The notes under the pieces: generated by a model
What the model saw: only the letters and a program-made list of their open reading frames with translations
What the model was told of the DNA's origin: nothing
The model's database searches: none
Shown here: positions 56,899 to 64,000 of the stretch, one piece after another
Numbering within the stretch: position 1 is the first letter of the stretch
How the letters are laid out: each line of letters starts with the position of its first letter
Made by a program: the position numbers and the translations under genes
DNA from: Escherichia coli
GTDB lineage: Bacteria; Pseudomonadota; Gammaproteobacteria; Enterobacterales; Enterobacteriaceae
Reading direction: 5' to 3' (one strand)
DNA: 64,000 bases
NCBI RefSeq assembly: GCF_002854065.1
Contig: NZ_CP024147.1

Positions 56899-58041
56899 TT
56901 AAATCTGCTTTTCATACAATCGGTAACGCTTGTACGGCTCTGCCCCAATGCGTTCCAGCATGTTATTCATGCCTGTATTGGTTTCGAGGATCCATGACAT
57001 CTCCAGCGCATCGATCTTCCGGCGGGCAAACGGATCGCGTAAGGCTTCAATCAATAACAGCGCAATCACCGGGCCGATGCGGCTGAACTGATACTCGTCC
57101 CGCACGCCCATCAGCGGCACTCGCGCAGTTCGCACACCGCTGACTTTCAAACGCCACAGCAATTTTGCCCAGCCGAAGGGAAAGAGCGATCCGTTCAGAT
57201 CGGCAATCGCCTCGTTGATGTTCGGCAAGCCGACAATAAACGCGCAGGGTGCAGAATCAATCTCAGCGATGTAGATCATATCGTCCGGCACCAGATATTT
57301 AAGTTGATCGCCCATGGTCGCGAATTCATGTTCGGTAAACGGCACAAATCCCCAGTTGTGCTGCCAGCCAGAGTTGAAAATCTCACGCAGGATCTGCATC
57401 TCTTCGGCAAACCGCTGGCGATTGATGCAGCGAATGGTCACCTTTTTGCGCACCTGATCCATCAGTTTTTTTAGCGCCGGAGAGAAAGTGAGATCGGTTC
57501 GCTGCATCCACCACGCCAGTAAATCAATGCCTTTGTGATAACCCAGTTGTTCAATATGCGCGGCATACCACGGTTTGCCGTGTGGCATCATCGCACAGGG
57601 TGGTGTGTCAAAACCTTCAATCAGTAATCCGCTTTCCTGATTGATATTCAGGCTGAAAGGCCCGCTGATCTTACTTGCACCTTGTGACTTCAACCACGCT
57701 TCCGCTGCGCCAAACAACGCGGCAAAAACCTGCGGATCATCAATGGCGTCAATCATTCCGAAATGACCGGTATCTTCACCGTAACGCTCACGGTGCAAGG
57801 TATCTATTTGCGCGGTAATACGCCCAACTATCTGCCCCGCTTTTTTTGCCACCCACGCCTGCCAGATGATATGGTCCGTCCCCGGATTTTTCGCAGACAA
57901 ATGCTCGCTGCGTTCAATGAATAAAGGGGGTATCCAGTTTGGATCATCGGGATAAAGTGATGACGGAAAAGCGATAAATGCCTTAAGGTCATTTTTATTA
58001 ATTACTTTTTCAATTTTGATCATCAGCAGATCGCATTCCAT
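56899..58041 (-). CDS. yghO: YghO-like protein, possible GNAT-fold N-acyltransferase (start codon uncertain, possibly 58023)
   Basis: 380-aa intact ORF at the yghO position after glcC; divergent from the lipid-like gene cluster; acyltransferase fold is my inference from sequence character only. Confidence 0.5.
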   Translation of the reverse strand: MECDLLMIKIEKVINKNDLKAFIAFPSSLYPDDPNWIPPLFIERSEHLSAKNPGTDHIIWQAWVAKKAGQIVGRITAQIDTLHRERYGEDTGHFGMIDAIDDPQVFAALFGAAEAWLKSQGASKISGPFSLNINQESGLLIEGFDTPPCAMMPHGKPWYAAHIEQLGYHKGIDLLAWWMQRTDLTFSPALKKLMDQVRKKVTIRCINRQRFAEEMQILREIFNSGWQHNWGFVPFTEHEFATMGDQLKYLVPDDMIYIAEIDSAPCAFIVGLPNINEAIADLNGSLFPFGWAKLLWRLKVSGVRTARVPLMGVRDEYQFSRIGPVIALLLIEALRDPFARRKIDALEMSWILETNTGMNNMLERIGAEPYKRYRLYEKQI

Positions 58042-58411
58042 AGTTCTGTGGGTAACAAATAATTAACGGTGAAAAACAGGTTGCAACAGCAACGAACGGC
58101 ATCTTAATAATCAACCCAATGAATACAAACGACGAATAAATAGTATTTATTAATGATTACGATAGGGTCAGCGACTACGCAGAAGCGCCACAATGCCTTT
58201 TGTCGATTTAAGGCGACCGGACAAGGCTTCTTCTTAATATATTCATAAATTAAATATCATTCACAATAAAAACAAAAAACTTAAATTCATTATTTAAATC
58301 AATGTTCATTTTCACACCGATGAAAATACTATCTCATTTATCTTTTATGCCTATATAATCCACCGCATTATTGTCATTTTATTTTGGATATCCAATTTTT
58401 TCGTGGTGTAT

Positions 58412-62530: not shown

Positions 62531-63610
62531 TTAATGTTGTCTGTCATACCAATACACCAGGCTCAACGCCACCAGCACAAACGCTATCGGTAAACCGAGC
62601 GCGGTAACAGGTGCGCTCAACGCAAATAGCAATCCCAGATTGACCATGATTTGATAGCTGATCCAGGTGAGTAAGCCAACGATGACACCTACAGCGAGAC
62701 GGCTACCCATCCCTGGCGAGCGCGGGGCACTAAAGGTAAACGGCACAGCCAGCAAAATCATCGCCAGGGTCAGGATGGGTTGCCCCAGTTTTTCCCACAG
62801 TGCAAGGCGGTATTCGCTGCTGGGTTGCCCGGTTTCCTGCAAATAATGGATGTAATGATTAAGCTGACGGACAGAAAAAGTATTCCCCGGCATCGATAGC
62901 TCTTCAAGATCCATACTGGTGAAGGCCGATTGCCAGGCAAGATTATCTGATGTTTCCAGCGTTTCTTTGCCATTCAGCCATTTTTTATGATTCACACCAT
63001 GCAGGATCCACGTTTTGTCGTCTTCAATGGTGGCACTGCGTGCATAAATGTAGGATTCGAGCGAAAGATCATCACGATAATGAAAAATCTCCACGCGCAC
63101 AGGCTGGCCCTGCTCGTTCAGCGATTTTACCGTCACAAATTCATTACCGCGCCTGGCCCACAGCATATTGCCGGTAATGTCATCGTCCTCACCCAACGCA
63201 GTGGCAGTCGATTTGATTTGCAGCGCCTGTTGCTGCAATGGCGACGCTACCCACTCATCTATCGCGCCTAACGAAACAGTCCACAATATCCCGGCAACCA
63301 GCGCCACCAGTGCAATACGGAAGATAGAAAACCCCGTGCTGCGAATGGCGGTAAGCTCACTGTTTTTCGATAACTGCCCCAGGCCAACAATCCCTCCCAA
63401 TAAGGCGATAAACGGCGAAAGTTCGACCAGTGTGCGCGGTAAGGTCATTAGCACCACCAGCACCGCCTGAGTCCAGCGATAACCGCCCGGGCTGACATCA
63501 TCCAGTTCGTTAATCAGGTTGAAGGTGGTAAAAAGCGGCAGCAATAGCCCTGCGGCGGCGGCAAAACCGAGAAAGAGATGACGGATTAAATAGCGACTGA
63601 AAACATTCAT
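62531..63610 (-). CDS. LptF/LptG (YjgP/YjgQ)-family permease
   Basis: Polytopic ORF starting at MNVFSRYLIRHLFLGF with large periplasmic loop; likely a yghQ-region gene. Confidence 0.7.
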   Translation of the reverse strand: MNVFSRYLIRHLFLGFAAAAGLLLPLFTTFNLINELDDVSPGGYRWTQAVLVVLMTLPRTLVELSPFIALLGGIVGLGQLSKNSELTAIRSTGFSIFRIALVALVAGILWTVSLGAIDEWVASPLQQQALQIKSTATALGEDDDITGNMLWARRGNEFVTVKSLNEQGQPVRVEIFHYRDDLSLESYIYARSATIEDDKTWILHGVNHKKWLNGKETLETSDNLAWQSAFTSMDLEELSMPGNTFSVRQLNHYIHYLQETGQPSSEYRLALWEKLGQPILTLAMILLAVPFTFSAPRSPGMGSRLAVGVIVGLLTWISYQIMVNLGLLFALSAPVTALGLPIAFVLVALSLVYWYDRQH

Positions 63611-64000
63611 CGGGAAAATTTCTGCAGCAAAGAGAAGTCGCGTGCGACCAGCATCAGCAGGCCCATTAGCATGAGTCCGGGCACTAACCACAAACCAGGA
63701 ATGAGAGGAATCGCGCCGTTAGCCACCAGCGTACGGCAGACGTCGCCGCCATAAAAAATGGCAATAAACAGCAACGTCAGTGGCAATAACGTTGAAAATC
63801 GCCCCTGCCGCGGTTTTACCCGACTTAATGAAATGGCCAGCAGCGCCATCAACAATGCTGTCAGGCCACGGCTTTGTCGCCATTGCAGTTCGGCATGATC
63901 GGCTGGAAAGACGGAGCGCGCCAGCTCCGTGACCGATTTCGCTTTGCGTTTGACGTTAGGGCTTTGATCCAGCGGATTCAGATGTAATTGCAGATTACGG
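63607..64000 (-). CDS. Second LptF/LptG-family permease, 3' part only (gene continues beyond the window end)
   Basis: Minus-strand frame is open from the window end to the stop at 63607; hydrophobic C-terminal segment. Confidence 0.6.
   Translation of the reverse strand, partial: RNLQLHLNPLDQSPNVKRKAKSVTELARSVFPADHAELQWRQSRGLTALLMALLAISLSRVKPRQGRFSTLLPLTLLFIAIFYGGDVCRTLVANGAIPLIPGLWLVPGLMLMGLLMLVARDFSLLQKFSR

Follow-up and report, generated by a model that had tools for sequence, protein, structure and literature searches.

A probable ACP-dependent sphingolipid pathway with LptF/LptG-like permeases beside yghO in Escherichia coli

Described sphingolipid loci and the yghO region

The sphingolipid locus of Caulobacter crescentus (CC_1152-CC_1168 / CCNA_01212-01226) comprises spt, acpR, aasR, cerR/epi, bcerS/aca, lptF2, lptG2, lptC2 and cpgABC, and native production of the lipid is proven in that organism, whereas the pathway of E. 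coli is known from genes and over-expression. Padilla-Gómez et al. (2022, Front Microbiol 13:961041, PMC9386255) studied ECD_02850-ECD_02854 of E. coli BL21(DE3) and demonstrated the functions of AasR, AcpR and SPT, with the roles of YghO and a short-chain dehydrogenase/reductase (SDR) predicted. According to the same paper, the order aasR-epi-acpR-spt is common to E. coli, CC_1165-CC_1162 and Neut_0458-0461, while aasR and acpR-spt are far apart in Sphingomonadaceae; in E. coli these genes share an operon. A 2026 preprint implicated Caulobacter LptF2/G2 in sphingolipid transport and drew the corresponding locus of E. coli UTI89.

We analyzed a window of 64,000 nucleotides from E. coli contig NZ_CP024147.1 (assembly GCF_002854065.1), for which an original prediction had proposed a ceramide-type synthesis and export module at positions 56899-64000. 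All genes named in that prediction were present in the list of open reading frames, with coordinates that were exact or a few codons off. Genes for a fatty acyl-AMP ligase, an SDR, an acyl carrier protein and Spt form a tightly packed operon on the plus strand, with yghO on the minus strand. The features are as follows.

56899-58041, minus strand: yghO, predicted ceramide synthase or N-acyltransferase (aca, bCerS-type), 380 aa with a modelled tandem GNAT fold
58042-58411, no strand: AT-rich intergenic region, 370 bp, separating yghO from the divergently oriented aasR operon, with promoters and regulatory DNA presumed from the layout
58412-60133, plus strand: aasR, fatty acyl-AMP ligase or AcpR-specific acyl-ACP synthetase, 573 aa (PGAP start 58445)
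60130-61044, plus strand: epi/cerR, NDUFA9-like extended SDR, predicted 3-keto reductase acting on 3-oxo-sphinganine or oxidised ceramide
61076-61324, plus strand: acpR, dedicated acyl carrier protein, 82 aa, phosphopantetheine site Ser39 in DLGLES
61324-62496, plus strand: spt, serine palmitoyltransferase, 390 aa, PLP-binding lysine in GTFSKS
62499-62533, no strand: GC-rich hairpin between the stops of the converging genes spt and lptG2, probably a bidirectional terminator
62531-63610, minus strand: lptG2, LptG-like permease, predicted to belong to an LptB2F2G2 extractor dedicated to sphingolipid
63607-64000, minus strand: lptF2, LptF-like permease, 3' end of a 1071-nt gene cut by the end of the window

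The locus in BL21(DE3) is the same one at the same position (glcC-yghO...yghQRST), with allelic differences only. DNA identity is 98.2% over 14 kb, and the products of ECD_02850-02854 are 95.7-100% identical to the window proteins. The NCBI annotation (PGAP) itself carries the name "spt: serine palmitoyltransferase". Profile scores, PDB relatives, predicted fold and the identity to BL21(DE3) all bear out the sphingolipid-like reading, and we put at roughly 85% the probability that E. coli has here its own version of the ACP-dependent sphingolipid (dihydroceramide) pathway of proteobacteria, with the permeases for export. Caulobacter has the same five types of biosynthetic gene and also LptF/LptG paralogues. 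The cluster is real, yet it has already been published and partly bench-tested and is not a new discovery; since the gene assignments are in print, our finding brings no new concept. Added here are a tandem-GNAT model of YghO, a survey of YghO neighborhoods, dN/dS values, the extent of the IS5 replacement in K-12 and a count of the locus in complete genomes.

Conservation and expression of the locus

Defined as retention of at least 80% of the 7.1 kb, an intact locus was found in 4060 of 5426 complete E. coli genomes (~75%). All ORFs are intact both here and in BL21, and dN/dS relative to BL21 is 0.05-0.17 in five genes, indicating continuing purifying selection. Homologues of YghO with ~80% identity are kept across Serratia, Citrobacter, Pantoea, Erwinia and Kosakonia. 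The expectation that K-12 lacks these genes proved correct: in MG1655, IS5 replaces 8,389 bp, a stretch that reaches from the first 40 nt of yghO into yghQ. The absence of the locus from K-12 through this deletion is probably why the cluster was long overlooked.

Apart from the K-12 deletion, these observations weigh against the alternative that survives best: a remnant, cryptic or silenced, whose enzymes are competent if over-expressed, while wild strains make no sphingolipid under any natural condition and the genes have no present role. Several points are in keeping with such a remnant. K-12 lost about 8.4 kb in the IS5 event, and we know of no defect that resulted. In strain CUWW06, which matches the window at 100%, the yghQ flippase gene is a pseudogene with an internal stop. 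In BL21(DE3) carrying empty vectors, with the chromosomal locus present, the 3-oxo-sphinganine spot was missing (PMC9386255), so the locus appears silent in standard culture. The 32% GC of the intergenic region may also resemble xenogeneically silenced DNA. Finally, in the searchable literature we found no published detection of a native sphingolipid in unmodified E. coli, and no report of its structure or inducing conditions. The earlier statement that no product had been characterized in E. coli thus stands for the native lipid but is outdated for the ligase, ACP and Spt of E. coli B, which PMC9386255 characterized biochemically. Given the purifying selection, the retention of the locus in three quarters of the genomes and the persistence of YghO homologues in other genera, we consider a functionless remnant unlikely.

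The intergenic region had been described as an AT-rich divergent promoter region of 370 bp. Its length and composition were confirmed, with 32% GC over 58042-58444 (403 bp, up to the PGAP start at 58445) and 34% in 58000-58499. A scan of the region for the sigma-70 consensus returned 2 sites, compared to 2.8 expected in shuffled sequence, so the promoter designation follows from gene layout and AT-richness only. An Rfam scan of 52000-64000 found no family.

Enzymes of the plus-strand operon

The ligase AasR scored 873 bits against NF006624 (cut-off 600) and 1290 bits against PDB 3PBK, 'Fatty Acyl-Adenylate Ligase', over residues 1-573. Because the alignment to 3PBK begins at residue 1 of the 573-aa protein, the start at 58412 is better supported than the PGAP start at 58445. 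AasR is 98.0% identical to ECD_02851, the AcpR-specific acyl-ACP synthetase that acylates AcpR-Ec (PMC9386255). The 3PBK protein is essentially AasR at full length, but that entry is named simply as a fatty acyl-adenylate ligase, and it was PMC9386255 that identified AcpR as the acceptor. The profile match, the structure and the identity to ECD_02851 all point to a FAAL-type acyl-ACP synthetase, with AcpR specificity taken from that paper.

The SDR gene lies between aasR and acpR, its start overlapping the ligase stop in ATGA. Its product has a GxxGxxG motif at residues 9-15 and YxxxK at residues 122-126, and its best PDB relatives are the NDUFA9 / 39-kDa subunits of complex I; Caulobacter CerR has likewise been reported as nearest to NDUFA9. 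Identity to ECD_02852, named a predicted reductase in PMC9386255, is 95.7%, and the operon position equals that of CC_1164 and Neut_0459 (PMC9386255). Together, the motifs, structural relatives and position mark this protein as an NDUFA9-like extended SDR with a predicted reductase role. A point against the pathway assignment is that it differs from Caulobacter CerR, which is reported to be periplasmic, in having no signal peptide and a Rossmann motif that begins at residue 9.

The NCBIfam ACP models gave weak matches to AcpR, under their cut-offs. The protein is 100% identical to ECD_02853, an ACP that carries 4'-phosphopantetheine (PMC9386255). This small dedicated carrier is encoded directly upstream of spt, and the acpR stop overlaps the spt start codon (TAATG).

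Spt scored 600 bits against the NCBIfam SPT equivalog NF047599 (cut-off 500). The soluble SPTs of Sphingomonas paucimobilis and S. wittichii (2JG2, 2X8U) were its leading PDB relatives at 373-376 bits, with 2JG2 from S. paucimobilis the best (376 bits), compared to 204 for Kbl and 176 for BioF. They belong to the same family and share the same catalytic residues: His159, Asp231, His234, PLP-Lys265 and Arg390 (S. paucimobilis numbering) are identical in the E. coli protein, where they sit in DSHAS, VDEAHS, GTFSKS and LLRCS. Profile cut-offs, PDB ranking and active-site residues therefore agree with the original prediction of an Spt-type alpha-oxoamine synthase rather than BioF or Kbl. Spt is 99.2% identical to ECD_02854, an SPT that uses L-serine to make 3-oxo-sphinganine, with a preference for acyl-AcpR. 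In that study (PMC9386255), SPT-Ec incorporated L-[14C]serine into a product that co-migrated with 3-oxo-sphinganine, and co-expression of AasR-Ec, AcpR-Ec and SPT-Ec yielded 3-oxo-sphinganine. Heterologous over-expression gave 3-oxo-sphinganine together with spots migrating like sphinganine and ceramide (PMC9386255).

Alpha-oxoamine synthases vary in their amino-acid substrate, and CqsA-type and cysteate-acyltransferase enzymes are recognizable relatives. The locus could accordingly make a different product, such as a CqsA/LqsA-type alpha-hydroxyketone or amino-ketone signal, or an N-acyl amino-lipid from an amino acid other than serine. One residue hints in this direction: Arg378 of S. paucimobilis SPT, at a non-defining position, is Leu354 in E. 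coli Spt. We rejected the idea that this leucine denotes another substrate, since all 31 Spt homologues aligned from YghO-linked loci have a hydrophobic residue there, which marks a trait of the lineage rather than a switch of substrate, and since the nearly identical E. coli B enzyme uses serine. The CqsA-type model matched at only 222 bits (cut-off 428), far from the 600 bits of the SPT model, so a non-sphingolipid product is very improbable. Even less credible is a BioF/Kbl paralogue in an unrelated fatty-acid or biotin side pathway: these enzymes share the PLP fold-type I alpha-oxoamine synthase superfamily with Spt, and their models do match (BioF TIGR00858 at 334 bits, Kbl NF005394 at 298 bits), but both fall under their cut-offs (426 and 460) and far under the SPT score, the PDB SPTs lead by >170 bits, and the published enzymology agrees with SPT (PMC9386255). 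With all three scores below curated cut-offs, we rejected BioF, Kbl and CqsA identities for Spt.

YghO, the permeases and a proposed route

YghO is 99.5% identical to ECD_02850, which is entered as 'aca' in PMC9386255 and named there, as yghO, a predicted N-acyltransferase. Sequence searches did not place it in a family: there was no Pfam match even at E<=10 and no NCBIfam match, and PDB matches were at chance level only. We therefore turned to structure prediction and Foldseek. A confident AlphaFold2 model (pLDDT 95.4) matched tandem-GNAT acyltransferases (2wpw, E 1.7e-15; 7q3a, TM 0.63), in line with the earlier suggestion that YghO might be GNAT-like. The model suggests that YghO is a tandem GNAT, with a predicted N-acyltransferase role.

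We also surveyed the neighborhoods of YghO homologues in 55 loci, each 15 kb or longer and from a wide range of bacteria, drawn from the best 80 of 598 confirmed matches. Within 10 kb of the homologue in this set, spt and epi each occurred in 27 of the 55 loci, aasR and acpR each in 25, lptG2 in 33 and lptF2 in 29. Genes for spt or lptF2/G2 adjoin YghO homologues in Proteobacteria, Nitrospira and others. The modelled fold and this cross-taxon association with spt and lptF2G2 are what would be expected of a GNAT-type N-acyltransferase linked genetically to spt. Caulobacter is not among the best 80 matches, and the link to its CC_1154 (bCerS) rests on PMC9386255, which states that the two are orthologous. 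In a lysine-acetyltransferase screen (mBio 2018), yghO appears in the strain and plasmid tables only; as K-12 yghO is without its native 5' end, that screen tells little about YghO function.

Two LptF/LptG-like permeases had been described as following the operon. The paralogues are present, but on the opposite strand and convergent with spt. The intervening hairpin is strong (MFE -30.3 kcal/mol, z -5.7; 0/200 shuffles folded as well), and together with the opposite orientation this indicates that the permease genes are not on the operon transcript. The full lptF2 gene reaches the equivalent of 64677, as seen in the 100%-identical strain CUWW06 (L001 15709-16779). LptF2 scored 318 bits against TIGR04407 and LptG2 scored 306 bits against TIGR04408, passing the cut-offs of both models, so the permease family is shared with the LptB2FG extractor (E. 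coli LptF/LptG, 6MHU). In contrast, LptG2 matched canonical LptG (6MHU_G) at only 143 bits, and the locus permeases are encoded beside spt with no copy of LptB. Judged by these scores, the two genes have diverged from the LPS permeases of which they are paralogues, and do not represent the housekeeping pair. The PGAP label 'LPS export' is thus probably over-propagated, and we flag here that RefSeq labels these paralogues as the LPS exporter. Genetic evidence from Caulobacter ties LptF2/G2 to the production of anionic sphingolipid, and the two proteins co-purify with LptB (2026 preprint).

Beyond the window lie genes for a YtfJ-family protein, a 274-aa protein, the MOP flippase YghQ and the P-loop proteins YghR/S/T. 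Pfam returned nothing significant for the 274-aa protein or YghS. P-loop proteins of the YghR/S/T type also occur beside spt in one Pseudomonas and one betaproteobacterial genome. Unlike Caulobacter, the annotated E. coli region has no lptC2, no obvious CpgB-type (GGDG) ceramide kinase and no cpgA/C. With other neighbors in place of cpg-type genes, the head group, if any, probably differs from that of Caulobacter.

In the route that we propose, AasR would adenylate a free long-chain fatty acid and load it on the phosphopantetheine arm of AcpR. Spt, with PLP on the GTFSKS lysine, would then condense acyl-AcpR with L-serine to 3-oxo-sphinganine, with loss of CO2. This loading and condensation have been shown experimentally for proteins that are 98-100% identical. 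Based on homology, fold and gene neighborhood, YghO is predicted to attach an amide-linked second acyl chain and the NDUFA9-like SDR to reduce the 3-keto group; the order of N-acylation and reduction is disputed in Caulobacter. The ceramide-type lipid may then be flipped, possibly by YghQ just past the window, and LptF2/LptG2 with the borrowed LPS ATPase LptB would extract it from the inner membrane toward the outer membrane, by analogy with Caulobacter genetics and pull-downs and from the conservation of the neighborhood.

E. coli is taught as containing PE, PG, cardiolipin and LPS only. A more speculative reading, which we consider less likely than not, is that most natural E. coli, unlike K-12, make a sphingolipid conditionally and deliver it to the outer membrane by way of LptB2-F2G2, with the conserved neighbors (the YtfJ-like protein, the 274-aa orphan, YghQ and YghR/S/T) providing flipping and a head-group chemistry other than that of CpgABC. 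If true, the textbook E. coli envelope would gain a lipid class, and functions could be assigned to several y-genes. In around 75% of complete E. coli genomes, a ceramide pathway appears to be present intact and maintained by selection, along with an Lpt-type exporter of its own.

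Gene content and layout of the locus

Gene layout was established from an ORF map of the window together with the RefSeq annotation of E. coli CUWW06, a strain that is 100% identical to it. The original prediction described a ceramide-type synthesis and export module beside yghO, and both sources concur that yghO and the ligase, SDR, ACP and synthase genes lie where it had placed them.

Features of the locus
56899-58041, minus strand: yghO (ORF map and RefSeq)
yghO/aasR intergenic region: 370 bp, or 403 bp if measured to the PGAP start
58412 or 58445 to 60133, plus strand: aasR, fatty acyl-AMP ligase, first gene of a compact operon
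60130-61044, plus strand: SDR; start overlaps the ligase stop
61076-61324, plus strand: acpR, ACP of 82 aa
61324-62496, plus strand: spt, alpha-oxoamine synthase; ATG overlaps the ACP stop, GTFSKS present
62499-62533: hairpin separating the stop codons of the convergent genes spt and lptG2
62531-63610, minus strand: lptG-like permease gene (lptG2), convergent with spt
from 63607, minus strand: lptF-like permease gene (lptF2), cut by the window end (63607-64000 inside)

Two permease genes are present after spt as proposed, but they lie on the minus strand and converge with it rather than continuing the operon. The 34-bp gap between the opposing stop codons is occupied by a GC-rich hairpin with a 16-bp stem (dG -30 kcal/mol, z -5.7), probably a bidirectional terminator. 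The proposed AT-rich divergent promoter region held up in part: the 370-bp gap between yghO and aasR has a GC content of 32-34% compared with ~52% in its flanks, but a sigma-70 consensus scan of this region scored no better than shuffled sequence. An Rfam scan found no family.

Identity of the enzymes

The synthase was suggested to be of the serine palmitoyltransferase type rather than BioF or Kbl, and profile, structural and residue comparisons agree. It passed the NCBIfam SPT equivalog NF047599 (600 bits, cut-off 500), while falling below the cut-offs for BioF (334 vs 426), Kbl (298 vs 460) and CqsA-type enzymes (222 vs 428). Among solved structures, the Sphingomonas SPTs ranked at the top (373-376 bits), followed by the Sphingobacterium SPT (265), Kbl (at most 204) and BioF (at most 176). 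Alignment to 2JG2 showed that His159, Asp231, His234, Lys265 and Arg390 are all kept. The PGAP name "spt: serine palmitoyltransferase" is already present in thousands of genomes.

In the same alignment, Arg378 of the Sphingomonas paucimobilis enzyme corresponds to Leu354 in E. coli Spt. We considered Leu354 as a mark of a different substrate and rejected this, treating it as a lineage trait, because the equivalent position is hydrophobic (L, I, V or F) in 31/31 aligned Spt homologues adjoining YghO homologues, in loci drawn from the best 80 of 598 matches. Arginine at this position appears to be specific to the Sphingomonas enzymes.

YghO, which was proposed to be GNAT-like, had no sequence match in Pfam, NCBIfam or PDB. 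Its family is large and full-length, with 1130 50%-identity clusters at E<=1e-30, and homologues sharing ~80% identity occur widely in Serratia, Citrobacter, Pluralibacter, Pantoea, Erwinia and Kosakonia. An AlphaFold2 model built with 52 diverse members (pLDDT 95.4, pTM 0.92) matched tandem-GNAT acyltransferases in Foldseek, including 2wpw (E 1.7e-15), 7q3a (TM 0.63), MshD, Eis and FemX, which places YghO in a predicted tandem-GNAT acyltransferase fold, in line with that proposal.

The ligase scored 873 bits against NF006624, "fatty acyl-AMP ligase", and 1290 bits over its whole length against PDB 3PBK, "Fatty Acyl-Adenylate Ligase". PGAP starts the protein at ATG 58445 (562 aa), while ATG 58412 gives 573 aa; an in-frame GTG is also present at 58403. 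We favor 58412 because the 3PBK alignment reaches this ATG, as does that of the NF006624 profile. The SDR carries GxxGxxG (residues 9-15) and YxxxK (122-126) motifs, and its nearest solved relatives are the complex-I NDUFA9/39-kDa subunits, a relationship also reported for Caulobacter CerR. The E. coli SDR is without an N-terminal signal sequence.

Permeases and conservation of the gene neighborhood

RefSeq/PGAP labels 62531-63610 (-) and 63607-64000 (-) as 'lptG' and 'lptF: LPS export ABC transporter permease', respectively. The LptG-like protein passes TIGR04408 with 306 bits, and against canonical LptG structures it reaches 143 bits at most; judged by sequence, it is an LptG paralogue. The spt-adjacent permeases are LptG2/LptF2 paralogues, and the RefSeq names appear to have been carried over too broadly from the TIGR04407 and TIGR04408 equivalogs. 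The idea of export is already published. LptC2/F2/G2 are encoded in the Caulobacter locus (PMC11324152). There, LptF2 and LptG2 interact with one another and each with LptB, and deletion of their genes is possible only in cells that do not make anionic sphingolipid (10.64898/2026.04.12.717747). Figure 2B of the same 2026 preprint depicts the sphingolipid operons of E. coli UTI89.

One genome per species was scanned with a YghO-family pattern; there were 598 confirmed matches, and the analysis used the best 80. With the E. coli proteins as tblastn queries, linkage to the YghO homologue was scored up to 10 kb away in 55 loci of at least 15 kb from these 80. Homologues of spt (27/55), aasR (25/55), SDR (27/55), acpR (25/55), lptG2 (33/55) and lptF2 (29/55) were linked, and the loci listed include Pseudomonas, Salinicola, Nitrococcus, Nitrosomonas, Nitrospira, Methyloversatilis, Geobacter, Roseovarius and Acidocella. 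The Nitrosomonas YghO homologue lies immediately upstream of lptF2-lptG2 with spt elsewhere, the arrangement also listed for N. eutropha (PMC9386255). This neighborhood conservation gives independent support to both the YghO-Spt and the YghO-LptF2G2 link.

Pseudomonas marginalis has a fuller sphingolipid locus (L004 555-16117), in which yghO-lptF2-lptG2 and a YegS/DAG-kinase-like lipid kinase form a block divergent from aasR-epi-acpR-spt. Downstream of spt are an MsbA-like ABC exporter, two P-loop proteins and a CptA-like phosphoethanolamine transferase.

Distribution in E. coli and relation to the published pathway

At least 80% of the 7.1-kb locus is present in 4060/5426 complete E. coli genomes, and dN/dS between the window and BL21 is 0.045 for yghO, 0.097 for aasR, 0.173 for the SDR, 0.161 for spt and 0.048 for lptG2. 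K-12 lacks these genes, as the original prediction stated: in MG1655 IS5 (insH9) stands in place of 8,389 bp (MG1655 L084 4147-5341 vs BL21 L003 12385-20773). Lost in this way are the 5'-most 40 nt of yghO, the entire aasR-spt operon, lptG2, lptF2, a gene of the ytfJ family, an orphan of 274 aa and the final 281 nt of yghQ. In K-12, 'yghO' and 'yghQ' thus survive as truncated or fused remnants.

The window and E. coli BL21(DE3) are collinear, with 98.2% DNA identity, and ECD_02850-02854 match its proteins closely (YghO 99.5%, AasR 98.0%, SDR 95.7%, AcpR 100%, Spt 99.2%). The original prediction knew of no characterized product in E. coli; however, functions of the BL21 AasR, AcpR and SPT had been published (Padilla-Gómez et al. 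2022, PMC9386255). In that study, ECD_02853 bears 4'-phosphopantetheine, ECD_02851 acylates ECD_02853 but not Caulobacter AcpR, SPT-Ec incorporates L-[14C]serine, and co-expression of the three E. coli genes forms 3-oxo-sphinganine, a spot absent from BL21 with empty vectors. Its Figure 9 labels ECD_02852 "epi" and "yghO ECD_02850" "aca", and Caulobacter and E. coli BL21 are reported to be the only organisms in which the five dihydroceramide genes form a cluster. Collectively, the predicted gene set is confirmed and its ceramide-type interpretation supported, but the finding was already known.

By this pathway, AasR would convert free fatty acid to acyl-AMP and load it onto AcpR, and Spt would form 3-oxo-sphinganine from acyl-AcpR and L-serine, steps demonstrated experimentally for proteins 98-100% identical to those of the window. 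YghO is predicted to carry out N-acylation and the SDR 3-keto reduction. Their order is contested: the Geiger group puts reduction before acylation, and the Klein group prefers acylation before reduction, with CerR acting in the periplasm. The lipid could then be flipped, perhaps with YghQ as the MOP flippase, and afterwards extracted by LptB2F2G2.

Several neighbors lie beyond the window end. In CUWW06 (L001), yghQ (18206-19555 (-)) is an annotated pseudogene with an internal stop, while it is intact in BL21(DE3). Between it and the YtfJ-family gene, a 274-aa protein (17382-18206 (-)) matched no Pfam or NCBIfam family; in two Luteibacter genomes (L041, L046), homologues with 50% identity lie ~9.8 kb away from the YghO homologue. 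At the far end, YghR, YghS and YghT (19601-21970) are P-loop, dTMP-kinase-like proteins. Homologues adjoin spt in P. marginalis (L004 2293-3770 (-), 36-37% identity) and in a betaproteobacterial metagenome-assembled genome (L022 8184-8915 (-), 53-54% identity), and YghR/S/T may belong to the sphingolipid system.

The searchable literature yielded no account of a native sphingolipid from E. coli. The remaining interest of the locus lies in this undetected native lipid and in the neighboring YtfJ-like protein, 274-aa protein and YghQRST.
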